A stretch of DNA of 32,000 nt from Tannockella kyphosi (GCF_021054785.1 NZ_CP088239.1:1500001-1532000); one strand, 5' to 3'. Counted from the stretch's first letter, positions 3,022 through 31,940 are shown. Numbers and translations: made by a program. The notes: a model not told the origin generated them from the letters alone.

Positions 3022-3039
3022 CTTTTTTTCTCCTTTTTT

Positions 3040-3232
3040 CCTTAAAATAAAAAACGTCCTTCTAAAAAAAGGACGTAATATACGCGGTACCACCTTTATT
3101 CATGATAAATTCTATCATGCACTTCATTATCTTAACGCGATTAACGGCGGCCTCTACTTTGTTCAAAGCGCTACTCCAGAGTGATTCATTATAAATAACA
3201 TGTTAGTTTCCACCAAACACTAACTCTCTAAA
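3040..3232 (-). promoter_or_regulatory. T-box leader (Ile specifier AUC) with intrinsic terminator
   Basis: Read on the minus strand: an AGAGAG stem I base (~3224-3230), a specifier-loop-like GAAUCAC with AUC at 3183-3185, and an AGUA-type box. The T-box core GGUGGUACCGCG lies at 3083-3094. The terminator ACGUCCUU/AAGGACGU plus U-run lies at 3047-3077, immediately upstream of ileS. Confidence 0.85.
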
Positions 3233-3270
3233 AATGTTCTTTTATAAACAGTCTCTATCGTTGTATTTCT

Positions 3271-7582: not shown

Positions 7583-8347
7583 TTAGTTACTTGATTTTTC
7601 TACAGCTTGAATAATAGCATTTCTAAACCCATTTTCTTCTAATGCTTTTACCCCTTTAATTGTTATTCCTCCTGGAGAACATACATTATCCTTTAAAACA
7701 CCTGGATGTATTTTTGTTTCTAACTGCATTGTTCCAGCTCCAATCATTGTTTGACTTGCTAATTTATAAGCAATATCTCGAGGAACTCCTTGTAAAACAG
7801 CACCATCTGCCAATGCTTCTATCATCATATAGAAAAATGCTGGACCACAACCACTGATAGCAGTTGCCCCTTTCATTTGATAAGTCGGTAAAATAACTAC
7901 TTCTCCAATGCTTTCAAACAAAGAAACAGCATATTCCATTTGTTGCTCATTGAAAGTATGCATTGCTTCTAATAAAGTCATTCCTTGGCTAACCATTGCT
8001 GGTGTATTTGGCATTACAGTTAAATGTGCACTACCTGGTAAAAAGCTTTCAATTCGTGAACAATCATATCCTGTAACAATAGAAATAATCAATTTATCTT
8101 GCACACTATCCTTTATTTTCTCTAAAACAGATTCCATCACATTTGGTTTAATAGCTAAAATAACAACATCTACTAACTCCACTAATTCTTTTTCACTATT
8201 TGTAGCATGAATAGCATAAGATTCAGCTATCTTATACGTTCCAATATCATATGCATAACAATCTTCCACTTTTAAAAAGTTTGCATCCATACAACCACTA
8301 GCTATCGCACTAGCCATATTACCCATTCCAATAAACCCTACTTTCAT
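7583..8347 (-). CDS. proC: Pyrroline-5-carboxylate reductase
   Basis: N-terminal Rossmann motif GFIGMGNMASAI and the C-terminal P5CR dimerisation signature SPGGITI. Confidence 0.9.
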   Translation of the reverse strand: MKVGFIGMGNMASAIASGCMDANFLKVEDCYAYDIGTYKIAESYAIHATNSEKELVELVDVVILAIKPNVMESVLEKIKDSVQDKLIISIVTGYDCSRIESFLPGSAHLTVMPNTPAMVSQGMTLLEAMHTFNEQQMEYAVSLFESIGEVVILPTYQMKGATAISGCGPAFFYMMIEALADGAVLQGVPRDIAYKLASQTMIGAGTMQLETKIHPGVLKDNVCSPGGITIKGVKALEENGFRNAIIQAVEKSSN

Positions 8348-9506: not shown

Positions 9507-10763
9507 CTAGTCTTCATTAAATAACTGTTCTAGTACTTTCCCAAGTTTGATTGGTCCTGTGTTTTTTGTTTGTGTTTTTGTAAGTCCTTTAAATCGTAAG
9601 GACATTGTAGAGCTAACATCCGGTAATACTAAAGATGGTTTATATTTACCTAGTATCTTTGATCGCTCTACTAAATAATACATCATCCCTAATGCACCTA
9701 CTTGAGCTTGATCCCTTGCTCCAATCGTATCCGGTCGATAAATTCGAACAGGCGCTCTTAATATTTCACTAGCTACATGATCTAACAAAGTTAATTCACT
9801 GCCCCCACCTACTAATACAATTTCTTTATTATGCACTTGTTCAATGATTGCTAACTTCTCATGAATAACAGCCATCACTTCTTTTGCTTCTTCATTTAAG
9901 ATTCTTGTTAAATCTTCTTGTGTATAAACAATATCTTTTCCATCAACTACCGTCGTATGAATAATATCATTTTGACCAACATGTGCTTGCAATGAACCAT
10001 ATTTAATCTTATACGCTTCTGCTTGATTCATTGCTATTTGAAACTCACTAGCAATACGCTTTGTAAAATTATATCCTCCAACATTACATGTTGATAAATA
10101 ACTAATATAACCATCTTGGAAATAAGAGATAGTTGTCATCTTATAACCAAAATCAATTAAGATTGCTCCTTCTTGTAAATAAGCCATATCAAAAGCTTCT
10201 TTTGCACAAGAATAAGCATTTAAACCAATCTCCAACACCTCTACTCCTGCACCTTCTACCGCTTGTAAATAAGGATATAGAACAGACTTTGGTGATGTCA
10301 CAACCAAAGAATCAACAACTAATGATTTTGATTTCTTATTCAAAGGCACTTCATAACTAGATTCTCTATCCGTATGATAACAAACAGGAATAACAGAAAT
10401 AATCTCATCTTTGTTTGATTTACTTATTTTTGAACCTAATTGCAATGCTTTAATAACATTTTCACTTTCAACAATATCTTTTGTTAGTGTAACACTCCCA
10501 CTACCAGTATATAGTTTTGTATGTATACTCGGGACATTCAAAGCCACCGATGTAATTGTTGTATCTAAATCATGTTGAGCTTCTTGTAATAAATTACGAA
10601 TATCTCTACTTACTGCATTCACATCCACTATTTTACCTAACTTAACTCCATGACTAGGAATTTTCTTTGCAAATAAAATATGTATGTTTGATTTTAATGA
10701 TTCACCTACAAGTAGTTTGATTGTTGCACTACCAATATCTAGTACGACATATATATCTTTCAT
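9507..10763 (-). CDS. ftsA: Cell division protein FtsA
   Basis: Actin-like ATPase motifs (LDIGSATIKLLVGE, ILIDFG, LVGGGSEL) and a position immediately upstream of ftsZ. Confidence 0.95.
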   Translation of the reverse strand: MKDIYVVLDIGSATIKLLVGESLKSNIHILFAKKIPSHGVKLGKIVDVNAVSRDIRNLLQEAQHDLDTTITSVALNVPSIHTKLYTGSGSVTLTKDIVESENVIKALQLGSKISKSNKDEIISVIPVCYHTDRESSYEVPLNKKSKSLVVDSLVVTSPKSVLYPYLQAVEGAGVEVLEIGLNAYSCAKEAFDMAYLQEGAILIDFGYKMTTISYFQDGYISYLSTCNVGGYNFTKRIASEFQIAMNQAEAYKIKYGSLQAHVGQNDIIHTTVVDGKDIVYTQEDLTRILNEEAKEVMAVIHEKLAIIEQVHNKEIVLVGGGSELTLLDHVASEILRAPVRIYRPDTIGARDQAQVGALGMMYYLVERSKILGKYKPSLVLPDVSSTMSLRFKGLTKTQTKNTGPIKLGKVLEQLFNED

Positions 10764-15304: not shown

Positions 15305-15850
15305 ATGATTGATGAAATTATTTTATTTAATGAAAATTTTGTAAAGAACGAAAAATATAAAGACTTTATTACCAATAAATATCCTAATAAGAAATTAGCG
15401 ATTCTCTCATGCATGGATACCCGTTTAACTAAATTACTTCCTGCTGCTTTAGGTTTAGAAAATGGCGATGCTAAAATCATTAAGAATGCGGGTGGTGTTA
15501 TTTCACATCCCTATGGTAGTGCTGTTAGAAGCATACTAATTGCAATCTATCAACTAGGCGTGACTGAAATTATGGTAATTGGTCATAGTGATTGTGGTGT
15601 TCAACATCTAGATAGTCAAAAACTAATTGATTCGATGATAAAACATGGGATTGAAAGCAGTGTTATTGAAAATGTGAAAGCTAGTGGGATTGATTTAGAA
15701 GGTTGGCTGGGAGGCTTCTCTAATGGGGATGCGGCAATTACAAATACTGTCCAATGTTTACAGTCACATCCATTAGTTCCAAAAGATATCCTTATTAAAG
15801 GCTTTATCATGGATTCATTAACAGGATTGCTTCAAGAAGTAAACAAATAG
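15305..15850 (+). CDS. Beta-class carbonic anhydrase
   Basis: Zinc ligand motifs CMDTRL and GHSDCG in a ~180-aa protein. Confidence 0.85.
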   Translation: MIDEIILFNENFVKNEKYKDFITNKYPNKKLAILSCMDTRLTKLLPAALGLENGDAKIIKNAGGVISHPYGSAVRSILIAIYQLGVTEIMVIGHSDCGVQHLDSQKLIDSMIKHGIESSVIENVKASGIDLEGWLGGFSNGDAAITNTVQCLQSHPLVPKDILIKGFIMDSLTGLLQEVNK

Positions 15851-15888
15851 GATTCTTTTATGATGCAATTAAAACATTCCTTTTCATT

Positions 15889-15979
15889 TTATTTCATAAC
15901 ATTTAACATACTACCTACAACAACAAGTGTAATTATGAAAGAGGATCTCCTATAACTAAATAGCGGGTGCAATGGTAGC
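15889..15979 (-). pseudogene. Diverged orphan copy of the ftsW 3' end (old att-site remnant)
   Basis: About 80% identical by eye to 23159-23254. The minus strand reads LPLHPLFSYRRSSFIITLVVVGSMLNVMK*, compared with [28 protein letters not shown] for the real FtsW. No upstream ORF is present. Confidence 0.6.
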
Positions 15980-16032
15980 TTAGGTCTCTTTTTTAGCTTC
16001 TTTATAAAATATCATTTTCATTTATTTCAGTT

Positions 16033-16307
16033 ACCAAGAATACAGAACAGCTTCATAAGATAGTGTTGATTGTTTTTTAGTAAATGGGTATACTATTGGT
16101 GAGGTTAAGTGGATTAACTTAAAAAAAGAGTTCTTGCTGGATCTCTTTTTTCGTTCTTTCGAACTAATCGTTAGAAGCAAGACGAATCAAGAACCAGTAA
16201 TCTTTTATGATAACTATAATCAAGACTCCTAGTCCAAACTTGACATCCAACATATATGTTTTAGTTATAATATTACTCTTCATTCTAACTAGAATTATTT
16301 AACCTAC
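16033..16307. repeat. Degenerate type I TA-like unit, copy 1
   Basis: Plus-strand TTGATT-17-TATACT (16066-16094) and an imperfect terminator (~16125-16151). On the minus strand the peptide ORF is reduced to a stub after SD-CTTGATT and the TGGTATAAT toxin promoter is absent. Confidence 0.55.
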
Positions 16308-16590
16308 AAAAAATTCAGAACAGCTTCACAAGATAGCGTTGACTGTTTTTTAGTAAATGGGTATACTATTAATGAGGTAAGGCGAATTACCAATAAAAAA
16401 GAGATCGGGCAGATCTCTTTTTTCGTTCTTTCGAACTAATCGTTGGAAGCAAGGCGAATCAAGAACTAGTTATCTTTTTAGAATAATTGCAATCAATACT
16501 CCTAATTCAAACTTGACCTCCAACATAACATGTTTTTAGTCATAATATTGCCCTCCATCGACTGTCAATATTATACCATATTTGATTGAT
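16308..16590. repeat. Type I TA-like unit, copy 2 (sRNA side intact, peptide ORF deleted)
   Basis: TTGACT-17-TATACT (16339-16367) and terminator AGAGATC-GGGCA-GATCTCT (16394-16424). The minus-strand TGGTATAAT (16570-16578) and AGGAG are retained, but ATGGAACTACTTATTGTGGTTCTTGT is missing between the two ATTGATT repeats. Confidence 0.6.
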
Positions 16591-16631
16591 CGAATGTTTA
16601 ATTTCAAGCCTAATTCTACAACTATTATTAC

Positions 16632-16880
16632 CTAAAAACAGTTCCCTTGATATTGGTCTAGTAGTAGTACTAGGCCTCTTTTCTTTAGTCTATCGTTCGT
16701 TACAGTATTACACATGATATATGCCATGGCAACTCGTGCGTATGCTTTTCTACTATTTGCCCATTCCCATGCTTTATATTTGTTTGCTCCTAGTTTTATT
16801 AGTGCTCTATATTTTGTACCTATTCTTTTCCATTGTTTCCATATGCACATCCTAAGTCTAAACCGTGTACGTGTGGCCGC
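16632..16880 (-). pseudogene. Group II intron reverse transcriptase/maturase, C-terminal fragment only
   Basis: RLRMCIWKQWKRIGTKYRALIKLGANKYKAWEWANSRKAYARVA...NDRLKKRGLV matches the conserved C-terminal (X/maturase-distal) region of bacterial intron-encoded proteins. No RT domain lies upstream and no domain V/VI RNA lies downstream. Confidence 0.65.
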
Positions 16881-17188
16881 AATAAACTGGACAGTTATTA
16901 TAAATTAATAATAACTGAAAAGGAGGCTCTAGAAGCAGACGAGAAAGACATATTTTTACAACTGCATTTAAAAAGCAAATGGTTGATTTGCATCACGGTG
17001 GTAAACACACTCGGGCTGTCGTTATAGGAGAGTATCATTATTTGATTATATTTAGATGATCGTACTTGAAACATTTATACACTTTTCAATAATCTCTGGA
17101 GACTTAAAACATCCCCTCATATATATACCTACAAAAGGTGAGCAAGTTGACCGAATTATTTTTAACTTTAGTAGCATAATTGAAATAT

Positions 17189-17204
17189 TATCATAATTAT
17201 GATA
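17189..17204. promoter_or_regulatory. 16-bp perfect palindrome overlapping the phd promoter (candidate operator)
   Basis: TATCATAATTATGATA lies between TTGAAA and the -10-like TAATAA, 22 nt upstream of the antitoxin ATG. Confidence 0.45.
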
Positions 17205-17226
17205 ATAACAAAAGGAGATGATAGCT

Positions 17227-17514
17227 ATGCCAAAGATTAGACCGGTTTCAGATTTAAGAAACAATTTTACTGATATTTCAAGAATTATTCATGAGGAATC
17301 AGAGCCTATCTTTTTAACTAAAAATGGTTATGGTGATATGGTTGTAATGAGCATTGAAGCTTACGAAAAACTCCAATTTGAAAATGAAATTTATTTCAAA
17401 TTGAAAGAAGCAAAATTACAAGCAAAGAGTACTGATATAAGATATTCTCATGAAGAAGTTTTCGGAGATTTAAGAAAAAAACTCCAAGATAAGGTAGACA
17501 TAGATGACATATAA
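17227..17514 (+). CDS. Phd/YefM-family type II antitoxin (copy A)
   Basis: MPKIRPVSDLRNNFTDISRIIHEESEPIFLTKNGYGDMVVMSIEAYEKL is the Phd/YefM fold signature. Start set at MPKIRP to match copy B. It differs from copy B at only two residues. Confidence 0.8.
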   Translation: MPKIRPVSDLRNNFTDISRIIHEESEPIFLTKNGYGDMVVMSIEAYEKLQFENEIYFKLKEAKLQAKSTDIRYSHEEVFGDLRKKLQDKVDIDDI

Positions 17515-17672
17515 AATACAATATCTACCAATTGCAAGAGAAGATATTGAACAGTCAGTGATTGTTTGTATGCACCTAAAGCAGCATTAGATTTACTTGA
17601 CAACATAGATAAAACTATAGACAACTTAAAAACCTTTCCAATTGCATATCCAGTCAATGAAACCTCTTGATA
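17504..17672 (+). pseudogene. ParE/RelE-family toxin remnant (frameshifted and 3'-truncated)
   Basis: The ATG overlaps the antitoxin stop. It starts MTYKIQYLPIAREDIEQ and shares the frameshift seen in copy B. Relative to copy B, the segment from TTTGAATATCG through CAAATACTCCAA (C-terminal two thirds) is deleted. Confidence 0.65.
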
Positions 17673-17805
17673 AGGCATTGATAAATTGAATAAAGTTACT
17701 TTACAAGCAAATATTTTCATTCTACACCAAAACTTATGGGCAATTTAAAATTCTGAAACTATAGATGAATCAAGCTCTTTGAAGAACTAAATAAGCAGAC
17801 CTAAG

Positions 17806-17840
17806 AAACACCGTAAATTCCAAGTTTACGGTGTTTTATT
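17806..17840 (+). terminator. Hairpin/terminator at the end of the Phd/ParE block
   Basis: AACACCGTAAA-TTCCAAG-TTTACGGTGTT followed by TTATT. In the cargo-less copy (22621-22643) only the 5' arm, the loop and TTTAC survive. Confidence 0.5.
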
Positions 17841-17952
17841 AGGCACTATAAATTAATTTTTTAAACCCCACTTACGTTTAAAGCACTAATGTCCTATTAA
17901 CTTTACGACAATTAGTGCTTTATTATTTTATGATTACTATTATACTTATCTT

Positions 17953-19107
17953 TTAAAATTTATCCCAAATCAAATACAACGCTAATAATGGCCCATTTTC
18001 ATATCCTTGTTCTGGATACTCTTTTTGCAGTTTGTAAAATTGCTTCAATAACAACTCCGAAAACTGCACTTCCCTCTTAATTCCTAATACTAGACAAACC
18101 ATAGATCGTGCTATTGGATATTTGATTTCCTCTATATTTTTTGTTAAATCCTCCACATATTTAGCATCTGAAATAGCTAATGCTAATGTGGCTATTTCAA
18201 CAAATTCATCTTGTCTATTATTTTTAATTTGCTTTAAAACAAGAGGTATAATTTGTTCTTCCATGGATGAAACTTTCTCTAATATATTTTCTCTATTTAT
18301 TACTATTGTAGATTTACGCATACATCTAATCAATTCTTTGGGGCAAGTAATCTGCATAATCGATGCTTTATCTTTCTCAATTTCCAATATTCTTTCTTCA
18401 TCTAAGAAGGGGAAGGTCGCTTCGTCAAGAAGATGCTTAAATTCATGGCTTCTCATCATAATTAAATTCAAATATAGGATCATAGCTGATGAGCTTTCTT
18501 CCAATTTATTTTGTTCAAAGAACTTTGCTGGTATACAAACCTTTTCGTAACTTTTCTTTTCAGCGAAAATCTTTTCCTGAAATCTATGAATAATATCTTC
18601 TGCAACTTCTCCTGGCAATCTTCCGTTTATGTTTATCTTATTTCTGATATTTTTAAATGCTGGTTTGTAATAATTAATATCTTCTTGAATGTCTTGCAAA
18701 TAATGCTCCTTGTGCTTATTTTTATAATCATCATCAATATAGCAATGATCATTTTCATCTGAAAATACTAATCTATCAAATATATTTGTTACACTATCTT
18801 GTAATTCTATTGCTATAGTATTAGCCCATAATAGATATCTATCAAATACACTCGCATACACAATAGGGCTAATTGCAATTACTTTATTCTGTTCTTTTGA
18901 TTTCATTAATAAATCTAAAACAACACCCTTTTTCTGATCACGTTCTAATTTATCTGGAATATTATTTACAAATTCTTCCAACGTTGTTCCATAATAAACT
19001 GTTGTTTCGTAATCCAAATCATAAAATTTATATCCTATTTTTTCAGCTAGTACTTCACCCGTTGTTGTCTTTCCTACATTTGTAATGCCAAGCAGTAAAA
19101 TTATCAT
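17953..19107 (-). CDS. P-loop protein: N-terminal shikimate/adenylate-kinase-like module plus ~200-aa helical C-terminal domain, function unknown
   Basis: Walker A LLLGITNVGKTTTGEVLAEKIGYKFYDLD at residues 4-32 in a compact kinase-like ~180-aa module. The C-terminal half looks helical-repeat-like. A GAGGTG RBS lies 6 nt upstream, and the start is 36 nt after the SEC-C gene. Confidence 0.6.
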   Translation of the reverse strand: MIILLLGITNVGKTTTGEVLAEKIGYKFYDLDYETTVYYGTTLEEFVNNIPDKLERDQKKGVVLDLLMKSKEQNKVIAISPIVYASVFDRYLLWANTIAIELQDSVTNIFDRLVFSDENDHCYIDDDYKNKHKEHYLQDIQEDINYYKPAFKNIRNKININGRLPGEVAEDIIHRFQEKIFAEKKSYEKVCIPAKFFEQNKLEESSSAMILYLNLIMMRSHEFKHLLDEATFPFLDEERILEIEKDKASIMQITCPKELIRCMRKSTIVINRENILEKVSSMEEQIIPLVLKQIKNNRQDEFVEIATLALAISDAKYVEDLTKNIEEIKYPIARSMVCLVLGIKREVQFSELLLKQFYKLQKEYPEQGYENGPLLALYLIWDKF

Positions 19108-19143
19108 ACATTCACCTCAGTCTACGATAAGGTAAACCTTATC

Positions 19144-20550
19144 TTATTTTTTACAACACTTTTTATACTTTTTTCCACTCCCACATGGACAAGGTTCATT
19201 AGGAGATATTTTTGTTACTTTTCTTTCAACTCCCTTGTTTGTCCCAGTAGAATACGACATCATAGGAATAATACTTTCAGACCTTTCTGAATCAATATTC
19301 TTCTTTAACATTTCAGTCGGTGTGTGTCCGCAATTACGCCATATTCTAGTCGAATTCATTATCTCTATTATATAACTCACGACCTCATTTGCTTGATTTA
19401 TATCTTTCATTAGTATGTCAAATTTTTCCAATTGTGCAAAAACATACTGAATACATCCCTCGGAACTACCACCATATTCCATTAATTCAGCATCAAAAAT
19501 GAACTCATGAATTCCATCTAGGATGTAATCTATATAATCTATGGCTTGCATTTCTCCTTGGTTCGCCGCTTTCTTAAAGTTCTTCATATATTTGCGCTCT
19601 AAATACCTCACAAATCTTTTTTCTGCAATGTTTATTTCTCTATAACTTGCATCAGCATACCTTAAAAATTCTATTCTAGACGGGATATATCGCTCATTCT
19701 CTGCCGATTCCCAATACAATTCACGGAAATACGAAGTTGCTCTTTTATAAAAGAATTCGTCTAAATGTTCTTCTGTAATCTCTGTATTTTTGTTACGAAG
19801 GAACCTAGCCATTTTTTCTATTTCCTTTTCAAGTTGCTCTCTAAAGCATTCATGTAGAATCAGTCCATCCATAGTCATACACACCCCTGGTATCATATTT
19901 CCAATTATGTTACTAAGGACTGCTGTGCACATATGCTTTGGGTTAAATACGATTGAATGAGCGTATTTCCCACCCAAACGTATATATCCATCTTCTTCCC
20001 ATATTTTCTTTTCATATTGCCTTATCAACGACTCTAATTCTTTAACATGAATTACACCATATAAATGAACAGCTGCCAATGCATATTGTCGAATCATATC
20101 TACGTATGCTTTACGTTTCATATATACCTTATCAATCGCTAAGATATCATAATCTTCTTGACATCTGTAAGATTCTAATAATCGCCTTATTTCATCATCA
20201 TCGAAACCTATAGTTATACAAAAACATTCAAAAATAGCATCCTCGCCTAACGCCTCTGCAATTAAGTTTATTTTTTCCTGTTTTTTTAATTTGTATGGAT
20301 TGTCGGCCATTTCACAAATTCTTCTACAGATTTCTAAAGCTGCTTCATCTAAAAAATCATATTGAGACTCAACAAACATCATAGATGTTTGTTCCGCTAC
20401 TATCTCTAGAAATTCATTTTTAGTCCCTTGTACCAATTCTCTAATATCACAATTCTTCTCAATAACCTGTACTACAATAGTCAGTAACTTATCAATATCT
20501 TTTGCATAATATTTCATTAAGCAATTCTGTATTTTATCTTTTCTACTCAT
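19144..20550 (-). CDS. SEC-C-motif (SecA-type zinc finger) protein, function unknown
   Basis: 468-aa protein whose composition looks predominantly helical, ending EPCPCGSGKKYKKCCKK. I recognise no catalytic motif. Confidence 0.65.
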   Translation of the reverse strand: MSRKDKIQNCLMKYYAKDIDKLLTIVVQVIEKNCDIRELVQGTKNEFLEIVAEQTSMMFVESQYDFLDEAALEICRRICEMADNPYKLKKQEKINLIAEALGEDAIFECFCITIGFDDDEIRRLLESYRCQEDYDILAIDKVYMKRKAYVDMIRQYALAAVHLYGVIHVKELESLIRQYEKKIWEEDGYIRLGGKYAHSIVFNPKHMCTAVLSNIIGNMIPGVCMTMDGLILHECFREQLEKEIEKMARFLRNKNTEITEEHLDEFFYKRATSYFRELYWESAENERYIPSRIEFLRYADASYREINIAEKRFVRYLERKYMKNFKKAANQGEMQAIDYIDYILDGIHEFIFDAELMEYGGSSEGCIQYVFAQLEKFDILMKDINQANEVVSYIIEIMNSTRIWRNCGHTPTEMLKKNIDSERSESIIPMMSYSTGTNKGVERKVTKISPNEPCPCGSGKKYKKCCKK

Positions 20551-20829
20551 TTTTTACACCTATTCTTTCTTTTTATTTACGCATCACCCCTTGGTGATAA
20601 ATTCATATTCGTTGTGAATATGTGCTTCCTTTTTCATATCTTCATACTAACAAAAACATCAATTTAACAAATCAGCTAACACGCTAGCTTTTAAAACTTC
20701 TACCTTCCCAAAATACGAGAATGATATTACATATTCTACTTTATCAAAGCTATTCTCATTAATCAAGTATATAAGATCACTTCACCAAATCGTATTGACT
20801 ATTTATTAATAAATGGATATACTATTGGT

Positions 20830-20879
20830 GAGGTTAAGTAGATTAACTTAAAAAAAAGAGATCGGCCGATCTCTTTTTT
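20830..20879 (+). ncRNA. Candidate type I antitoxin sRNA (copy 3)
   Basis: Promoter TTGACT-17 nt-TATACT (20795-20823). The 20-nt perfect palindrome AAGAGATCGGCCGATCTCTT (20856-20875) plus a T-run ends the transcript after ~50 nt. Nt 20830-20845 can pair with the toxin mRNA at 20902-20917, including two G-U pairs. Confidence 0.5.
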
Positions 20880-20921
20880 CGTTCTTACGAACTAATCGTT
20901 GGAGGCTAAGTAGATCAAGAG

Positions 20922-20978
20922 CTAGTTATCTTTTATAATAACTATAATCAATACAAGAACCACAATAAGTAGTTCCAT
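20922..20978 (-). CDS. Candidate type I toxin, 18-aa hydrophobic peptide MELLIVVLVLIIVIIKDN (copy 3)
   Basis: Extended -10 TGGTATAAT (21058-21066) and AGGAG (20987-20991) 8 nt before the ATG. It converges on the sRNA terminator. The identical peptide is encoded at 22885-22941. It is below the ORF-track size cutoff. Confidence 0.5.
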   Translation of the reverse strand: MELLIVVLVLIIVIIKDN

Positions 20979-21195
20979 AATCAATACTCCTAATTCAAAC
21001 TTGACCTCCAACATAACATGTTTTTAGTCATAATATTGCCCTCCACCGACTGTCAATATTATACCATATTCGTACGATGAAAAGAGTCTTTTCAATGATA
21101 ATTCGTTCACTATTTTTTATAAATTTATCAACTAAAAATAGTTTCCTTTATATCTAAGAAATCTTATTGATTTCTTCTTTTTTTATACAAAAATA

Positions 21196-21291
21196 TTAAT
21201 TTTGTTTCATAACATTTAACATAATACCTACTGCAATAAGTGTAATCGTTAAAGAAGATCCACCATAACTAAAAAATGGTAAAGTGACGCC
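21196..21291 (-). pseudogene. Exact orphan duplicate of the last 96 nt of ftsW
   Basis: Identical by eye to 23159-23254 (codons for [31 protein letters not shown]). Identity stops abruptly after GTGACGCC at 21291 and 23254. Confidence 0.85.
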
Positions 21292-21300
21292 TGTAACGTG

Positions 21301-21330
21301 TAGTTCACGCTCCCTTTAGAACGTGAACTA
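21301..21330. repeat. 9-bp inverted repeat next to the ftsW' junction
   Basis: TAGTTCACG-12 nt-CGTGAACTA, beginning 10 nt from the homology breakpoint. Confidence 0.6.
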
Positions 21331-21585
21331 GCTATCACACTTAAATCCACATTAAAGAATACTTCTATGTTTCTTTCTTCATCTATTTCTACCTTTGAAT
21401 TAAATCCAATATTAGTTTACGATTAACCTCTTTTAAACTCACAAACTGTTCAATCGTTCTTTTCACTTCATCACAGCTAACAATATTTTTTTGTCATCTT
21501 TTAGTATTTCTAATCTTGTGTTTAGTTTGTTTACTTTGGGGGTGCGGACGTTTTCGTTGATATTTATATCTTGGATAGGCTACAA
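21330..21585 (-). pseudogene. C-terminal remnant of a large serine recombinase (DUF4368-like tail), frameshifted
   Basis: Minus-strand frames read ...NTRLEILKDDKKILL..., then KRTIEQFVSLKEVNRKLILDLIQR, then VEIDEERNIEVFFNV. This resembles the coiled-coil and terminal domain of Firmicute large serine recombinases. It is interrupted by stops or frame changes, and the N-terminal ~400 aa are absent. Confidence 0.4.
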
Positions 21586-21816
21586 AAAACTGGACAGTTA
21601 TTATAAGAGCGACTATTGTTAATGATAACTAAAAAGGAGGCTATAGAAATAGAAGAGAAAGATGTATTTTTACAACTGCATTTAAAAAGCAGCTTGAAAC
21701 ATCTATTCACTTTTCAATAATCTCTGGAGACTTAAAAACTCCCCCTCATATATATATCTGCAAAAGGTGAGCAAGTTGACCGAATTATTTTTAACTTTAG
21801 TAGCATAATTGAAATA

Positions 21817-21834
21817 ATATCATAATTATGATAT
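21817..21834. promoter_or_regulatory. 18-bp perfect palindrome overlapping the phd promoter (candidate operator)
   Basis: ATATCATAATTATGATAT lies between TTGAAA and TATAAT, upstream of the antitoxin at 21867. Confidence 0.45.
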
Positions 21835-21866
21835 TATAATGATAATAACGGAAGGAGCTGATAGCT

Positions 21867-22154
21867 ATGCCAAAGATTAGACCGGTTTCGGATTTAAGAA
21901 ACAACTTTACTGATATTTCAAGAATTATTCATGAGGAATCAGAGCCTATCTTTTTAACTAAAAATGGTTATGGGGATATGGTTGTAATGAGCATTGAGGC
22001 TTACGAAAAACTCCAATTTGAGAATGAAGTCTATTTCAAATTGAAAGAAGCAGAATTACAAGCAAAGAGTACTGATATAAGATATTCTCATGAAGAAGTT
22101 TTTGGAGATTTAAGAAAAAAACTCCAAGATAAGGTAGACATAGATGACATATAA
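21867..22154 (+). CDS. Phd/YefM-family type II antitoxin (copy B)
   Basis: Same signature as copy A, with a GGAAGGAG RBS. Confidence 0.85.
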   Translation: MPKIRPVSDLRNNFTDISRIIHEESEPIFLTKNGYGDMVVMSIEAYEKLQFENEVYFKLKEAELQAKSTDIRYSHEEVFGDLRKKLQDKVDIDDI

Positions 22155-22439
22155 AATACAATATCTACCAATTGCAAGAGAAGATATTGAACAGTCAGTG
22201 ATTGTTTGTATGCACCTAAAGCAGCATTAGATTTACTTGACAACATAGATAAAACTATAGACAACTTAAAAACCTTTCCACTTGCATATCCAGTCAATGA
22301 AACAACAAAACCTCTTGATTTTGAATATCGAATGATACCTGTTAAAAACTATTTAATTTTCTATGTAGTTACAGGAGATATTGTTGAAATTCATAGAGTG
22401 GTATACTCGAAAATGGATTTAACAAGACTACTAAAATAA
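22144..22439 (+). pseudogene. ParE/RelE-family toxin with an N-terminal frameshift
   Basis: ATG 22144 overlaps the antitoxin stop and gives MTYKIQYLPIAREDIEQSV, then stops at 22228-22230. The rest (YAPKAALDLLDNIDKTIDNLKTFPLAYP...YRMIPVKNYLIFYVVTGDIVEIHRVVYSKMD) is in another frame, open from 22191. The C-terminal part is a typical ParE/RelE fold signature. Confidence 0.65.
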
Positions 22440-22788
22440 CCAAATACTCCAAAGGCATTGATAAATTGAACAAAGTTACTTTACAAGCAATTCAAGATGT
22501 TTAAAACGATATTGGTACAAGCAAAGATTTTCATTCTACACCAGAACTTATGGGTAATTTAAAATTTTGAAACTGTAGATAAATCAAACTCTATGAAGAA
22601 CTAAATAAGCAGACCCAAGAAACACCGTAAATTCCAAATTTACTCAACTAACACGCTAGCTTTTGGAACTTCTATGAGAATGATATTACATGTTCACCTT
22701 TACCAAAGATTTTCTCATTAATCAAGTATATAGGATTACTTCACCAGATTGTATTGACTGTTTTTTAGTAAATGGGTATACTATTGGT

Positions 22789-22841
22789 GAGGTAAGATGG
22801 AATTACCAATAAAAAAAGAGATCCTGCTAGATCTCTTTTTT
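22789..22841 (+). ncRNA. Candidate type I antitoxin sRNA (copy 4)
   Basis: TTGACT-17-TATACT (22754-22782) and terminator AGAGATC-CTGCTA-GATCTCT plus T-run (22813-22841). Nt 22791-22805 match the target at 22866-22880 at 13 of 15 positions, and both differences give G-U pairs. Confidence 0.5.
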
Positions 22842-22884
22842 CGTTCTTACGAACTAGTCGTTGAAGGCAAGATGGAATCAAGAG

Positions 22885-22941
22885 CTAGTTATCTTTTATA
22901 ATAACTATAATCAATACAAGAACCACAATAAGTAGTTCCAT
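22885..22941 (-). CDS. Candidate type I toxin, 18-aa peptide MELLIVVLVLIIVIIKDN (copy 4)
   Basis: TGGTATAAT (23021-23029) and an AGGAGG RBS 7 nt before the ATG. The ORF nucleotide sequence is identical to copy 3. Confidence 0.5.
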   Translation of the reverse strand: MELLIVVLVLIIVIIKDN

Positions 22942-23118
22942 GATCGATCCTCCTAATTCAAACTTGACCTCCAACATAACATGTTTTTAGTCATAATATT
23001 GCCCTCCACCGACTGTCAATATTATACCATATTCGTACGATGAAAAGAGTCTTTTCAATGATAATTCGTTCACTATTTTTTATAAATTTATCAACTAAAA
23101 ATAGTTTCCTTTATATAC

Positions 23119-23147
23119 GAGAAATCTTATTGATTTCTTCTTTTTTT
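23119..23147 (+). terminator. Plus-strand intrinsic terminator between the toxin promoter region and the ftsW stop
   Basis: AGAAATC-TTATT-GATTTCT followed by CTTTTTTT. The same element occurs at ~21157-21186. The T-run is on the plus strand only. Confidence 0.5.
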
Positions 23148-23158
23148 ATACAAAAATA

Positions 23159-24232
23159 TTAATTTTGTTTCATAACATTTAACATAATACCTACTGCAAT
23201 AAGTGTAATCGTTAAAGAAGATCCACCATAACTAAAAAATGGTAAAGTGACGCCAGTTATCGGAAAAATTCCAACAACCACACCCAAGTTAATCAATGCT
23301 TGTATTGACAATAATGAACCAATCCCAACTAACAAAAAACATCCAAATAAATCATGACATTCCTTGGCACTAGAAATAATAAGATAAATTAAAAAAACAT
23401 ATAATCCAATTAAAAAAATAGCTCCTATCAAACCAAATTCTTCGCAATAAATAGCAAATATAAAATCAGTTTGAGGCTCTGGTAAATAAAAGTGTTTTTG
23501 AATACTATTATTATAACCAACCCCCACTATTCCTCCAGGTCCAATCGCATACAAAGATTGTATCATTTGAAATCCACTTCCCAAAGGATCGCCAAAAGGA
23601 TCTAAATAAGCAGTTATTCTTTCCAAACGATAAGGAGCCGCTACTATCATCCCAACTAACCCAGCAACACCCCCTAAACCAAGAAAAACAAAATAACGAA
23701 AAGGTAATGGTGTAACTAACAACATAACAACTATACTACTAGCCATCACGATAGCACTACCAAAATCAGGTTGCAACATAATCAAACCAAACCCTATCAA
23801 TATCACAACAAATAAAGCAATTGCATTGCTTATTTTTTTTAATTCCAAATAATACAAATGAATATAACGAGCACTATAAATAATAATACCAACTTTAAAT
23901 AATTCACTAGGTTGAAAAGAAACAATACCAAAATCAAACCAACTTTGTGATCCTCCTCTTGCACTACCAACTCCCGGAATAATTACTAAAATTAATAATA
24001 TAAATGTCACCAACAATAATTTTCTACTATGTACTAAATAAAAATGATAATCTATCTTAGAAACTATAAACATACATACAATCCCAATAAACGCAAAAAA
24101 TAATTGCCTCTTTATATAATAAAAAGAATCTCCAAACTTATAAAAAGCCCATACATTACTAGCGCTATAAACCATACACAAACCAATAAACACAATCACT
24201 AACACTACTCCAATGACTAATCTATATCGCAT
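23159..24232 (-). CDS. ftsW: SEDS-family peptidoglycan glycosyltransferase FtsW (SpoVE position in sporeformer dcw clusters)
   Basis: Ten-TM FtsW/RodA/SpoVE signature ([27 protein letters not shown]) and a position between murD and murG. Confidence 0.9.
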   Translation of the reverse strand: MRYRLVIGVVLVIVFIGLCMVYSASNVWAFYKFGDSFYYIKRQLFFAFIGIVCMFIVSKIDYHFYLVHSRKLLLVTFILLILVIIPGVGSARGGSQSWFDFGIVSFQPSELFKVGIIIYSARYIHLYYLELKKISNAIALFVVILIGFGLIMLQPDFGSAIVMASSIVVMLLVTPLPFRYFVFLGLGGVAGLVGMIVAAPYRLERITAYLDPFGDPLGSGFQMIQSLYAIGPGGIVGVGYNNSIQKHFYLPEPQTDFIFAIYCEEFGLIGAIFLIGLYVFLIYLIISSAKECHDLFGCFLLVGIGSLLSIQALINLGVVVGIFPITGVTLPFFSYGGSSLTITLIAVGIMLNVMKQN

Positions 24233-24271
24233 ATAAATCCCCCCACTTATTTATACGCAAAAAAAAGAGAG

Positions 24272-25609
24272 TTATAACTCTCTTATATACTGTTTAAACA
24301 TTTTTCCTCTTTGATCATAACCACTAAACTCATCAAAAGAACTTGTTGAAGGTGATAATAAAATAATATCTTCTTCTTTAGAAACCTCTAATGCTTTTTT
24401 AGTAGCTTCTAATAAATTTTCACAAAGATAACTTTTCTCTATACCCATTTCTTCATAAAATCTTTGTCCTGCAGCTCCAAATGCAATAAAAGTATCTACT
24501 TTATCACGATAAGATTTTAACTCCGTTAAATCTAATCCTTTATCAAAACCACCCATCAATAAAACAACCGGTTTATCAAAAGCCTTTAATGCAATAATAG
24601 TTGCATCACAATTAGTTGCCTTAGAATCATTATAAATCTCTTTACCATCTTTATTCATAACATACTCAATGCGATGTTCTACTCCATGAAACGAAGCAAT
24701 TGCATTTGCAATAACATGATTATCATAACCTAATTGCTTAGCAACACAAGTGGCTATCATACAATTTTGAACATTATGTTTACCAACTACTCTAATATCT
24801 TTTAGATCAATAATCTTTGTTCCCTGATAATAAATAGAATTATCTTTTAAGCAACAATCAGCATCTTGTTCTAAAGAAAAAGTAATCGTAGAACAAGGAA
24901 TAGGATATTGTTTTATATATTCTAAAACCACTAAATCATCGATATTTAACAAAAAAGTTCCTGTTGTTTGATGCTTATAAATATTTGTTTTCGAAGCATA
25001 ATATTCTTCTAAAGAAAGCATATAATCTAAATGATCAGGTGTTAAATTAATAATACTAGAAACATTTGGTGCAAATGTTTCTATATCTAATAATTGAAAA
25101 TTACTCATTTCTAATATAATGGTATGTCCTTCAACTTGTAATAAGTTATGTTCCATAATAATATCACAAAAAGGATAACCAACATTCCCTGCTAAGTGGA
25201 CCTTATCATTGGTAGATTTTAAAATTTCTTCAATTAAATGAACAGTTGTTGTCTTCCCATTTGTACCCGTAATAGCAACATAATTTTGTTCCTTAGCACA
25301 CTGAAAACCCAATTCTATCTCTGTATACACCGGAATATTTCTTTCCTTTAAACGTAAAATAAAAGGCTTTTGATAATTAATTCCCGGGTTTTTTACTACA
25401 AAATCAAAATCTCTTTCAAATAACTCCTCTGGATGTCCTCCAGTAATCATCTCAATTCCTTGATTAACATAATCATCATACTCTTCAATAGATTCTTTTT
25501 TATCAAAAACATTAACTGTAATCGTAGCATTTGTTGCTTGTAATAAGCCAATAGCAGCTCTCCCACTTTTTGCCAGCCCTAATACTAACACTTTTTTCCC
25601 TGTTAACAT
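24272..25609 (-). CDS. murD: UDP-N-acetylmuramoylalanine--D-glutamate ligase
   Basis: N-terminal GLAKSG Rossmann motif, the Mur ligase P-loop GTNGKTTT, and synteny with mraY. Confidence 0.95.
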   Translation of the reverse strand: MLTGKKVLVLGLAKSGRAAIGLLQATNATITVNVFDKKESIEEYDDYVNQGIEMITGGHPEELFERDFDFVVKNPGINYQKPFILRLKERNIPVYTEIELGFQCAKEQNYVAITGTNGKTTTVHLIEEILKSTNDKVHLAGNVGYPFCDIIMEHNLLQVEGHTIILEMSNFQLLDIETFAPNVSSIINLTPDHLDYMLSLEEYYASKTNIYKHQTTGTFLLNIDDLVVLEYIKQYPIPCSTITFSLEQDADCCLKDNSIYYQGTKIIDLKDIRVVGKHNVQNCMIATCVAKQLGYDNHVIANAIASFHGVEHRIEYVMNKDGKEIYNDSKATNCDATIIALKAFDKPVVLLMGGFDKGLDLTELKSYRDKVDTFIAFGAAGQRFYEEMGIEKSYLCENLLEATKKALEVSKEEDIILLSPSTSSFDEFSGYDQRGKMFKQYIREL

Positions 25610-25610
25610 C

Positions 25611-26588
25611 TTATAATACTCCTAAAACCATTCCTATTAATGCACATATAAATCCCATAAACCAAAAAGAGATAACAACTTGTGGTTCATTCCATCCTAA
25701 CATCTCAAAATGATGATGAATTGGAGCCATTTTAAAAACTCTTTTTCCTCTTGTTTTAAAAGAAACAACTTGAATAATAACTGATAATGTTTCCATTACA
25801 AAAACCCCACCAATTAAAACAAGTAAAATTTCTTGATTCGTAAGAATAGCTAAAGCACTTAATAATCCACCTAAACTAAGAGACCCTACATCTCCCATAA
25901 ATATTTTAGCAGGATTATAATTAAACATCATAAATCCAAGCAATGATCCAACCATACACATTGCAAAACTAGCAACCGTAAATTCTTTCATCATAATCGC
26001 AAAGATAATAAATGGTGAAATAGCCATCATACATAACCCTGTAGCTAAACCATCTAATCCATCCGATAAATTCACTCCATTACTTGTTGCAGTAAACATA
26101 AAATAAACTAAGACCGGATAAGCATATCCTAAATCTACATTAATATGGAAAAATGGAATCGAAATAATAGTATCAAATCCTGGTACATATTCTTTTGCTA
26201 GAAAATAAAAAGCAATAGCAATAAGTGATTGTAAAGCATATTTCATTTTAGCTGACAATCCATCATTTTTCTTTTTAACTACAATTAAAGCATCATCTAA
26301 TAAACCAATTAAACCAAATCCTAATGTAACAAAACATAATAATAAAAGAATAGGATTCGTAATATCTTTATAATTTAAAATACATGCTACTAATAAAGTA
26401 CTCAAAATAAATACACTACCACCCATTGTTGGTGTTCCGCCTTTTGCTTTATGAGACTCCATTCCTTCTTCTCTTTGTACTTGTCCAAATTTCATTTTAT
26501 GTAGAAAAGGTATTACCTTTGGCATTGCTACTAAAACAACTAAGAAACTAATAATAAAAGAAGCTAATAAATTTATAAAATATTCCAT
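25611..26588 (-). CDS. mraY: Phospho-N-acetylmuramoyl-pentapeptide transferase
   Basis: Motifs K.GTPTMGG, NLSDGLDGLA, GD.GS...G and APIHHHFE. Confidence 0.95.
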   Translation of the reverse strand: MEYFINLLASFIISFLVVLVAMPKVIPFLHKMKFGQVQREEGMESHKAKGGTPTMGGSVFILSTLLVACILNYKDITNPILLLLCFVTLGFGLIGLLDDALIVVKKKNDGLSAKMKYALQSLIAIAFYFLAKEYVPGFDTIISIPFFHINVDLGYAYPVLVYFMFTATSNGVNLSDGLDGLATGLCMMAISPFIIFAIMMKEFTVASFAMCMVGSLLGFMMFNYNPAKIFMGDVGSLSLGGLLSALAILTNQEILLVLIGGVFVMETLSVIIQVVSFKTRGKRVFKMAPIHHHFEMLGWNEPQVVISFWFMGFICALIGMVLGVL

Positions 26589-31390: not shown

Positions 31391-31789
31391 TTATTTTTTC
31401 TTTTCAGGTTTTGACTTAAACTTTTCATGATTCATATACTTGTCATATTCTACGCACAAAGTAGAAGAATGATTCCCTTGATTAACAATGCAACCAAATC
31501 GCATATGACCTACATAACCAAGATAACCTATTTTATAATCTCTATATAAAGACATAATATCATCTGGTCGCCTATCACTTGCAAGTACACCATCTCCATA
31601 GCTAAAACTCTCTTTATCTAATTGCTTAATAAAATGCTCCTTTGTTTCTTTATCCTTCACATGAATATATACACTTCCATATACATCCACCAAGTTTTTA
31701 AGCGTCCTTACTTTAAGTCTTTCCTTTCTTTGTCTTTTTTGATTCTTTTCAAACTCCTTTTTCACTACCTTTTTAATTTCTTTTTTCAT
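31391..31789 (-). CDS. Hypothetical 132-aa protein with lysine-rich termini
   Basis: The ORF is intact and lies directly downstream of the SAM-riboswitch-like leader. I recognise no domain. The best-placed ATG after AGGAGG (8 nt) opens only a 6-codon frame, and the long ORF starts 4 nt later. Confidence 0.5.
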   Translation of the reverse strand: MKKEIKKVVKKEFEKNQKRQRKERLKVRTLKNLVDVYGSVYIHVKDKETKEHFIKQLDKESFSYGDGVLASDRRPDDIMSLYRDYKIGYLGYVGHMRFGCIVNQGNHSSTLCVEYDKYMNHEKFKSKPEKKK

Positions 31790-31820: not shown

Positions 31821-31940
31821 AGAAAAAGAAAATCCCATCGTTACCGACAGGATTATACGTTCATTCATTCCTTAGCACCTTATTAAAAGCAGGTTGCTGT
31901 ACGATCAATGGTCTTGTCCCTCACGTACTCTAGATAGTTT
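31821..31940 (-). promoter_or_regulatory. SAM-I (S-box) riboswitch-like leader with terminator
   Basis: The minus strand reads CUAUCUAGAG-UACGU-GAGGGA-CAAGACC-AUUGA-UCGUACA-GCAACC-U..-AGGUGCUAAGG. This carries the ordered S-box core motifs AGAG, GAGGGA, GA, GCAACC and GGUGCUAA, with P2 (UACG/CGUA) and P3 (ACCU/AGGU) pairing. It is followed by the hairpin AAUCCUGUCG-GUAA-CGAUGGGAUU plus a U-run (31821-31854). I could not draw P1 or P4 cleanly. Confidence 0.5.

Follow-up and report, generated by a model that had tools for sequence, protein, structure and literature searches.

Small zinc knuckles of the SecA type, with the pattern CxCxSGxKxKxCC, are found in SecA's metal-binding domain (MBD) and in YecA/AscA and YchJ. 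The knuckle of Escherichia coli YecA/AscA binds SecB and ribosomes (bioRxiv 10.1101/2020.07.21.215244). A SEC-C motif is also present in Rugutis, a 359-residue lactococcal plasmid protein that was experimentally validated as a single-gene antiphage system, and of which the confident AlphaFold model is unlike anything in PDB and homologues occur in Clostridiales and Bacillales (PMC11381338). Open reading frames (ORFs) like pRiA4_ORF3 are passengers of Mutator-like transposons of the ISAzba1-group (PMC3942029). Other systems to be compared include the shikimate kinases AroK/AroL (PF01202) and the zeta/PezT, AvrRxo1 and HipA-type effectors. Here we describe a locus within a 32,000-nucleotide stretch (hereafter the window) of the low-GC Bacillota chromosome of Tannockella kyphosi (GCF_021054785.1, NZ_CP088239.1:1500001-1532000). 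In this window, a 2,842-bp block (17830-20671) carries two minus-strand genes, gene A (19144-20550) for a SEC-C protein and gene B (17953-19107) for a kinase-like protein. The A+B pair is a horizontally mobile, dispensable two-gene accessory operon, and is best read as a mobile sensor/adaptor-kinase accessory module and not as a metabolic or secretion pair.

A two-gene block absent from the sister repeat

The backbone around the block is duplicated. By repeat analysis, 16875-17829 is colinear with 21578-22643, and 20672-21213 with 22644-23176. Only repeat copy 1 contains the block; in copy 2, positions 22643 and 22644 are adjacent. Pairwise alignment gave 92% identity between 17702-17829 and 22516-22643, and 90% identity between 20672-20702 and 22644-22674. 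The exact 2,842-bp indel, claimed in an earlier note made on this DNA from the sequence alone, was thus borne out over 16875-21213 and 21578-23176. The pattern is not due to chance, and we call the block dispensable because precisely this segment is missing in the duplicated copy.

The left edge of the block is straddled by a terminator-type hairpin of the upstream Phd/ParE operon (17800-17843, plus strand), which is cut in copy 2. Folding of 17795-17850 gave -22.2 kcal/mol (z = -7.2, 0 of 200 shuffles equal) with the paired part at 17800-17843, whereas the copy-2 equivalent ends after TTTAC and folded at -2.8 kcal/mol (z = -0.6). RNA folding therefore confirmed the complete hairpin here and the half-hairpin in the copy without cargo, both already described in the earlier note. 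Neither inverted nor direct terminal repeats were found at the block ends (17830 and 20671). Since terminal repeats are absent and a half-hairpin is kept in copy 2, deletion from copy 2 is likelier than insertion into copy 1, as the earlier note had argued; insertion of the block by transposition was rejected on the same grounds. The note had also taken the block as cargo of a decayed integrative element. This view is not borne out, because no integrase was found in the region around the block.

The same pair in the same order was detected in two Logan contigs, L002 and L003 (70%/83% protein identity). Identity to the window at the nucleotide level (84-85%) is limited to 17953-20566 and the flanks are unrelated, indicating that the pair travels as a unit. 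Absence from copy 2 and movement between unrelated contexts altogether support the earlier proposal of a dispensable accessory operon without assigned function. Upstream of the pair in L002 (L002:2-298), a 98-aa protein gave a weak Toprim/OLD-like match (E 1e-3, below threshold), which hints at a defence-type neighbour.

Gene B encodes a predicted kinase-like module

The gene B product, 384 aa long and starting with MIILLLGITNVGKTTTG, is a fusion in which a P-loop module of shikimate-kinase fold is followed by a helical domain, here called BC. The Walker A module and the helical domain of about 200 residues, both recognized at first reading, were confirmed by the ORF, by Pfam and by the AlphaFold model. 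In this model (pLDDT 74.6, and >85 in the greater part of the N-terminal module), residues 1-180 form an alpha/beta P-loop module, after which a helical repeat extends over about 200-384. We refer to the kinase-like family of the N-terminal module as SKL. The SKL module of gene B (18568-19107, minus strand, residues 1-180) carries the Walker A motif GxxNxGKT at 19066-19089. Pfam SKI matched residues 11-149 (E 2.1e-9, 38.1 bits against a cut-off of 22.1), which denotes fold-level membership only, and AAA_18 also matched within residues 1-150. The SKL model resembled the shikimate kinases 2pt5, 1zyu and 2iyu with template modelling (TM) scores of 0.77-0.81 at 15-22% identity, and the top 50 fold matches were shikimate, adenylate and Fap7-type kinases. 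The profile-to-PDB match was limited to the first ~75 residues.

Alignment with E. coli AroK indicated that the Walker A motif, the DxD motif and the first shikimate-carboxylate arginine (R58 equivalent) are kept in the SKL family. Residues G7/G12/K13/T14, D30/D32 and R56 of gene B align with G11/G16/K17, D34/D36 and R60 of AroK (precursor numbering), and G7, N10, G12, K13, D30, D32 and R56 are invariant in 30 SKL family members. In contrast, the shikimate GGG loop is not found in SKL, where ATGGG is replaced by AISPI or AVTPxSY (TPxSY/SPI). The position aligned with the second carboxylate arginine (R136 of Mycobacterium tuberculosis, R140 of E. coli) is never Arg in any SKL family member, and the acidic invariant motif FDRLVFSDENDxxYxDDDYK takes the place of the shikimate-kinase LID. 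The NCBIfam shikimate-kinase equivalogs gave only 16-29 bits on gene B against cut-offs of 142-217 (best 28.9 against 186) and 20-36 bits on standalone SKL relatives; the best NCBIfam match of gene B overall was a non-canonical homoserine kinase, and its NCBIfam scores taken together ranged from 16 to 32 bits. The 200-aa helical fusion, the mobility and the lack of aro context are further differences from shikimate kinases. As judged from these alignments, gene B has a shikimate-kinase fold with catalytic residues intact but is not a shikimate kinase. The absence of the GGG loop and of the second arginine, together with the scores below cut-off, thus speaks against the housekeeping identity that the earlier note had named as fatal to its proposal. 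A kinase misnamed 'shikimate kinase' in databases can corrupt metabolic reconstructions of aromatic amino-acid synthesis.

A profile search yielded 467 SKL relatives. Nearly all of them occur in gut Clostridia as free-standing ~180-aa proteins and share 45-55% identity with the gene B N-terminus. The BC domain (17956-18552, minus strand, residues 186-384), a helical repeat, likewise belongs to a free-standing family of ~200 aa. An exhaustive search with the C-terminal 199 residues of gene B gave 258 cluster representatives, 114 of them at E<=1e-10. The family includes P0242-P0390; most members are free-standing, and the SKL-BC fusion was found in only three clusters. No Pfam or NCBIfam model exists for the family, and none of 45 scanned members carried a Pfam domain over the BC region. 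Among the conserved BC motifs, LP..FF..NP lies towards the N-terminus and YP.E.Y.QGPLLAL at the C-terminal end. One BC member lies in a small islet together with an XRE regulator, two Zn-ribbon mini-proteins and a Uma2 nuclease (L263-L268).

Gene A encodes a predicted helical protein with a terminal knuckle

The product of gene A, 468 aa in length and ending in ...CPCGSGKKYKKCCKK, is 100% identical to the database 'YecA family protein' of Tannockella kyphosi. The ORF and a Pfam SEC-C match agree with the first description of this protein as ending in a SecA-type zinc motif. The motif (19153-19200, minus strand) covers residues 451-466, CPCGSGKKYKKCC, and was matched by PF02810 (E 1.2e-7, 31.9 bits against a cut-off of 20.4). 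Its profile also matched SecA and YchJ MBD peptides in PDB, and the CxCxSGxKxKxCC knuckle at the extreme C-terminus is identical to those of SecA, YecA/AscA and YchJ. The other 440 residues carry neither the UPF0149 domain of YecA nor the NTF2-like domain of YchJ. Curated matches were confined to the last ~20 residues, and the NCBIfam 'YecA-like' models covered 441-468 only. YecA membership was not supported by these models either, with 37.1 bits against a cut-off of 140 for NF004088 and 22.7 against 149 for NF007704. To our knowledge, SecB is lacking in Bacillota, and therefore the partner of the gene A knuckle must differ.

The AlphaFold model of gene A (pLDDT 83.7, pTM 0.77) is nearly all helical, with two beta-hairpins before the knuckle. 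By Foldseek, this model matched neither PDB (best E 1.3) nor the viral predicted structures of BFVD (best E 0.24). Three core motifs, AAVxLYGVIH (159-168), RYIPSxxEFLRYAD (287-299) and NxTRxWxNxGHTPxE (399-413), were recognized. Full-length relatives with 28-70% identity form about 17 clusters. A larger set of Bacillota SEC-C proteins of 330-460 aa can be aligned over 40-75% of gene A, some of which bear an N-terminal Rho_N or PRiA4_ORF3 domain. Gene A is a member of a Bacillota-wide alpha-helical family with a terminal SecA-type knuckle.

Gene A was compared with Rugutis on the basis of its published description. Both are Bacillota SEC-C proteins with a confident model and no PDB match, but Rugutis is a plasmid-borne, single-gene system of 359 aa, with the motif reported to be N-terminal. 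Five tblastn searches for Rugutis (pUCCL633_059), using intermediates as queries, gave no match on a Lactococcus plasmid.

These results bear on a housekeeping explanation, by which gene A would be a YecA/AscA-like secretion chaperone and gene B the shikimate kinase of the cell. NCBI does name gene A 'YecA family protein' and gene B relatives 'shikimate kinase', and the SEC-C knuckle and the shikimate-kinase fold are both real. These names, however, rest on the knuckle and on the first ~75 residues only; gene A lacks a UPF0149 domain (37 bits against the 140-bit cut-off), the shikimate-binding residues are missing from gene B, and the sister repeat lacks the block, which moves among contexts that are not related. 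We consider this explanation hardly credible, and it is effectively refuted by the missing residues, the lack of UPF0149 and the block mobility.

Domain fusions link A-type and B-type proteins

The SKL, BC, DUF1186 and PRiA4_ORF3 domains, the gene A core and the SEC-C knuckle make up one repeated fusion network. SKL is fused to DUF1186 and SEC-C (P0131/P0132, a 481-member cluster; also L225 and L240), to DUF1186 (P0127) and to PRiA4_ORF3 (P0125, P0139). BC is joined to an N-terminal domain plus SEC-C (P0311, P0390) and to PRiA4_ORF3 plus TPR (P0315; PRiA4_ORF3 E 3e-61). In L014, a 775-aa PRiA4_ORF3...SEC-C protein adjoins a gene A homologue. No homology was detected between BC, DUF1186 and the gene A core by hhalign with shallow and deep profiles, indicating that the network consists of distinct domains. 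Our literature search on DUF1186, UPF0158, MM3350 and polymorphic-toxin immunity with SEC-C yielded essentially nothing.

Besides the window-type pair, a second and independent adjacency was found in L193, where the gene for a 246-aa 'mini-A' and a standalone SKL gene are convergent and separated by 83 nt. This mini-A keeps all three gene A motifs and the SEC-C knuckle (gene A hidden Markov model, E 6e-26). The link between A-type and B-type genes comes from the domain fusions and this one further adjacency, rather than from conserved pairing. Mainly because SEC-C is fused directly to BC, we infer that the knuckle may be in physical contact with BC or DUF1186 domains.

Genomic contexts of SKL and gene A relatives

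Relatives of gene A and members of the SKL family are carried on insertion sequence (IS) elements, in restriction loci and in cargo arrays of integrative elements. The commonest SKL neighbour is an IS1634-family transposase (NF033559, 343 bits against a cut-off of 100), which is co-oriented and starts 3-10 nt after SKL. This arrangement was observed for 20 of 80 loci, or 15 of 53 lineages at 90% identity; the remaining 38 lineages have no adjacent transposase. In the ~2.6-kb element at L203:7854-10471, a 181-aa SKL ORF comes first and is followed after 4 nt by a 603-aa transposase, with imperfect inverted repeats at 7840-7869 and 10453-10482. Diverged copies (67-74% nucleotide identity) stop at the same coordinates (also L197, L215, L220, L237, L238, L239 and L241). 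As the conserved block is bounded by the inverted repeats, SKL is the first ORF of a ~2.6-kb IS. The IS1634-SKL element is abundant in human and animal gut metagenomes, and we found no literature report of an IS1634-family passenger kinase or a shikimate-kinase-like IS passenger. The A+B block is similar to IS1634 and ISAzba1-group elements in that SKL is an IS1634 passenger and its fusion partner PRiA4_ORF3 a transposon passenger, but differs by having no transposase and no terminal repeats.

This position of SKL is consistent with a helper function, in which the SKL NTPase and its SEC-C, BC and PRiA4_ORF3 partners serve the element in regulation of transposition, target choice or anti-host-defence, and A+B is a stranded derivative. 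SKL lies co-oriented, 3-10 nt upstream of the transposase and inside the inverted repeats; PRiA4_ORF3-like ORFs were reported as Mutator-like transposon passengers (PMC3942029); and mini-A homologues occur on viral contigs as well as in arrays of cargo genes that follow ImmA/IrrE-XRE-recombinase modules. On the other hand, A+B in the window and in L002/L003 lacks transposase and recombinase, as 38 of the 53 SKL lineages lack an adjacent transposase. In addition, we know of no P-loop kinase of the SKL-type fold that acts as a transposition factor. A helper function is, in our estimate, quite unlikely.

The same contexts would also suit a small-molecule resistance cassette, in which SKL phosphorylates a cationic antibiotic or xenobiotic, as chloramphenicol phosphotransferase of related P-loop fold does with its drug, and gene A and BC act as regulator, chaperone or localiser. 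SKL has the compact fold of small-molecule kinases and intact catalytic residues, its invariant acidic patch SDENDxxYxDDDYK suits a basic ligand, and a passenger position on IS1634-family elements in 15 of 53 lineages is classic for resistance genes. Most SKL genes stand alone, so the enzyme works without a partner, and enzymes of the shikimate-kinase fold have been recruited to other substrates, the best NCBIfam match being a non-canonical homoserine kinase. No similarity to a known resistance kinase was detected, however, the top 50 fold matches being shikimate, adenylate and Fap7-type kinases. Nor does a resistance cassette account for the recurrent fusions of SKL with SEC-C, DUF1186, PRiA4_ORF3 and BC, or for its embedding in a type I restriction-modification (R-M) shufflon. 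We therefore regard resistance as unlikely, albeit a serious alternative. Should the function turn out to be resistance, or help to the transposon, the IS1634-family element would still merit characterisation for its kinase passenger, which is conserved in many gut lineages.

The shufflon in question is a phase-variable type I R-M locus of the order Fic-HsdM-HsdS-SKL-recombinase-RhuM-HsdS'-HsdR, inside which one SKL lineage (9 loci) is located. SKL lies between hsdS and the recombinase gene in L233:4159-15149 and L231:3194-14184, and RhuM is on opposite sides in the two, as expected for shufflon inversion. Other SKL neighbours are AAA-ATPase_like/PDDEXK_9 paralogues, a Zeta_toxin-like P-loop gene (L011/L012), a NERD-helicase and a SWIM protein.

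Gene A homologues at 30-50% identity neighbour RecQ (two loci), a Schlafen/HATPase_c_4 protein, a HipA-like PDC-M03A kinase, YjeF/LOG/Lgt, SpoIIID and Smr. The RecQ helicase gene is directly upstream of the gene A homologue in L013 (L013:8001-11279) and one gene away in L014 (L014:1372-6943); this neighbourhood in two unrelated contigs may be due to chance or point to another recurrent association. Neighbours of gene A homologues without annotation were checked as hidden SKL or BC proteins, and none of them are.

More distant relatives came from a profile search of genome contigs with the gene A alignment. This search became fixed on the knuckle, so that its matches were mostly SecA and unrelated tail proteins and the source locus was missed; it was of use as a negative control on the linkage of SKL, and nine distant relatives of gene A were obtained from it. 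One of them is adjoined by Eco57I-type R-M, GmrSD_N and RiboL-PSP HEPN (L022), and others by NERD (L023), by helix-turn-helix (HTH) and Fic (L024), and by a tyrosine integrase (L020). The corresponding search of viral contigs also gave mostly knuckle matches; relatives there are accompanied by Macro (L100) or by ImmA/IrrE and a UmuC-like Y-family polymerase (L102). In Vescimonas fastidiosa pMM35_01 (L262:6600-8316), a mini-A is carried in a cargo array behind serine recombinase and ImmA/IrrE-XRE genes. The mini-A of ~330 aa in L262:6600-8316 and in L100:9366-11707 (IMG/VR) is preceded by an overlapping ORF of ~102 aa annotated 'carboxylate--amine ligase', and the L262/L100 cargo run includes UPF0158, NTF2-like, SRPBCC and Macro-domain proteins. 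Altogether, about 11 of 19 contexts contain mobile-element or conflict genes, which is a raw count. With this reservation, the IS1634, R-M and cargo-array contexts support the idea, put forward in the earlier note, that relatives of each gene are found in mobile-element or conflict neighbourhoods.

Toxin-antitoxin remnants in the flanks

Both repeat copies carry a Phd/YefM-ParE module on the plus strand. In copy 1 (17218-17670), an intact Phd/YefM antitoxin gene (17218-17514) is followed by a ParE-type toxin remnant; in copy 2 (21867-22439), the antitoxin gene (21867-22154) is followed by a frameshifted ParE-type toxin gene (22206-22439). The antitoxins of both copies are intact (PF02604, E 1e-11). 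The ParE-type toxins (17501-17670 and 22141-22439) are frameshifted after ...EDIEQSV in both copies, and copy 1 has in addition an internal deletion of ~140 nt. Since the frameshift is common to both copies, the toxin was inactive already before the duplication. The addiction modules that had been described as bracketing the block are thus real with respect to their antitoxins, but decayed with respect to their toxins.

The location of the block between decayed Phd/ParE and small hydrophobic-peptide modules raises the alternative of a toxin-antitoxin or addiction pair, in which gene B is a kinase toxin like zeta/PezT or AvrRxo1 and gene A neutralises it. P-loop kinase toxins, such as zeta/PezT and AvrRxo1, exist, and the Zeta_toxin-like P-loop gene of L011/L012 adjoins a standalone SKL. 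Gene B resembles these and HipA-type effectors in being a kinase as possible effector of a two-gene mobile module, and one gene A homologue is followed by the HipA-like PDC-M03A kinase in place of SKL. However, gene B gave no match to Zeta_toxin (PF06414) at E<=1 or to a HipA profile, and no small upstream gene for a cognate antitoxin was found. About 70 of 80 SKL loci stand alone and lack any conserved partner, a situation incompatible with a free toxin; both proteins are far bigger than typical type II toxin-antitoxin components; and the gene A family, as putative antitoxin, is mostly without any kinase. An addiction pair is therefore improbable. The zeta-type kinship suggested in the earlier note could not be upheld, the closest folds being shikimate kinases, and a zeta-toxin reading of gene B was rejected for lack of a profile match and because SKL is mostly stand-alone.

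Possible role of the A+B operon

The single most likely function of A+B, by guilt by association, is a role in conflict between host, mobile element and phage, either as defence or in an abortive-infection-like manner; we put this role forward tentatively, as somewhat short of probable. In such a role, gene A may be a sensor or adaptor, of which the zinc knuckle would dock on the BC part of gene B or on some partner that both have in common, for instance the ribosome. Docking would bring the SKL kinase to a positively charged target, either a small molecule or a macromolecule, which the kinase might then phosphorylate.

Several observations weigh against a conflict role of the pair. Full-length adjacency of A and B is confined to the closest relatives (L002/L003), and is absent in L013, L014, L018, L019, L180, L181 and L001 and in about 76 of 80 SKL loci. 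In six further contexts of the gene A family, no kinase-like gene is in the neighbourhood, and upstream of a gene B homologue with 58% identity lie an Rpn-like fragment and a DinJ-like start in place of gene A. No SKL gene was found within 10 kb of 160 SEC-C-tail loci, the partnerless state of about 70 of 80 metagenome SKL loci counts in the same direction, and the standalone BC gene looked at had neither SEC-C nor SKL as neighbour. Several gene A relatives lie among housekeeping genes (transaldolase/MatE, sigma factor, SpoIIID, Lgt/YjeF; L021, L032). SKL is absent from IMG/VR as judged by profile search of viral contigs, and gene A, gene B and BC gave no tblastn match in plasmid and phage collections. 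An IS-passenger kinase is equally typical of resistance genes, and PADLOC gave no system-level match for the A+B locus. With PADLOC-DB v2, gene A matched PDC-S12, E1-E2 and E2 over residues 425-468 only, and gene B gave one marginal P-loop match (IetA, E 0.006). The gene A matches being only around the ~25-residue SEC-C knuckle, the PADLOC run agrees with the first impression that no described defence family is recognized here.

The expectation that homologues of the two genes co-occur as adjacent pairs largely failed, and the A-B pairing appears evolutionarily shallow. For this reason our conclusion is weaker than the two-gene defence system proposed at first reading, but it is also broader, since the components are part of an uncharacterised network of domains that recurs on mobile DNA. 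In its widest form, A+B and relatives would be an undescribed, modular class of mobile-element-borne conflict systems with Rugutis as a member. The knuckle would be a universal tether to the ribosome or to BC/DUF1186 adaptors and would connect variable sensors, namely the gene A core and PRiA4_ORF3, to the SKL effector, which would phosphorylate a cationic cellular or phage target, blocking infection or element loss. We regard this extended form as rather unlikely to hold. If the conflict function is true, a kinase-based effector class on the shikimate-kinase fold is added to the defence repertoire of gut Bacillota, and a first functional handle is gained on the orphan 'SEC-C domain' and 'YecA family' proteins of Firmicutes, including Rugutis. 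It would also explain why these genes travel on IS1634-type elements and inside restriction shufflons.

Operon signals and other features of the window

The spacer between A and B (19108-19143, minus strand) is 36 nt long and contains an 18-nt palindrome, GATAAGGTTTACCTTATC, and the GAGGTG ribosome-binding site (RBS) of gene B, located 6 nt upstream of its ATG. The gap and the separate RBS of the second gene are as originally read from the sequence. In the predicted RNA fold of 19105-19150 (minus strand; dG -10.5, z -2.7), the gene B RBS, GAGGUGAAU, pairs with the 3' half of the palindrome after the gene A stop, which suggests possible translational coupling or attenuation of gene B. The gene A leader within the block (20551-20671, minus strand) contains an AGGTG RBS, the palindromes CATATTC..GAATATG and TCACC..GGTGA, and -35/-10-like hexamers as a candidate promoter; a promoter scan of the block was not above shuffle expectation. 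Downstream of the gene B stop, a hairpin at 17880-17921 (minus strand; dG -19.3, z -4.1) with the stem AAAGCACTAAT / ATTAGTGCTTT has no U-run on the coding strand.

The variable region 15850-23159, comprising toxin-antitoxin remnants, an intron remnant and the A+B block, is an accessory islet within an otherwise core neighbourhood. It is bordered by a beta-carbonic anhydrase gene (15305-15850) and by ORFs read as ftsW-murD-mraY of the dcw cluster (23159-26588). A module of ~270 nt occurs in four copies at 16022-16629, 20751-21117 and 22710-23080, and encodes a very hydrophobic peptide of ~30 aa, for example MLEVKFELGVLIMELLIVVLVLIIVIIKDN at 20922-21014 and 22885-22977 on the minus strand. A GC-rich palindrome, AAAAAAGAGATC..GATCTCTTTTTT, adjoins the peptide ORF, and the module is type I toxin-like. 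An Rfam search of 15800-23300 at E<=0.1 detected neither a type I antitoxin RNA nor a group II intron RNA. The 72-aa ORF at 16632-16850 (minus strand) is a truncated group II intron remnant and matched a 427-aa reverse transcriptase/maturase of such an intron over residues 354-424 (7uim_D, E 2.4e-6). Two ordinary cis-regulators unrelated to the block were also found on the minus strand: a T-box leader (3066-3270, 132 bits) upstream of a 937-aa ORF (280-3093), and a SAM riboswitch (31832-31940, 46.8 bits) upstream of the ORF 31391-31789.

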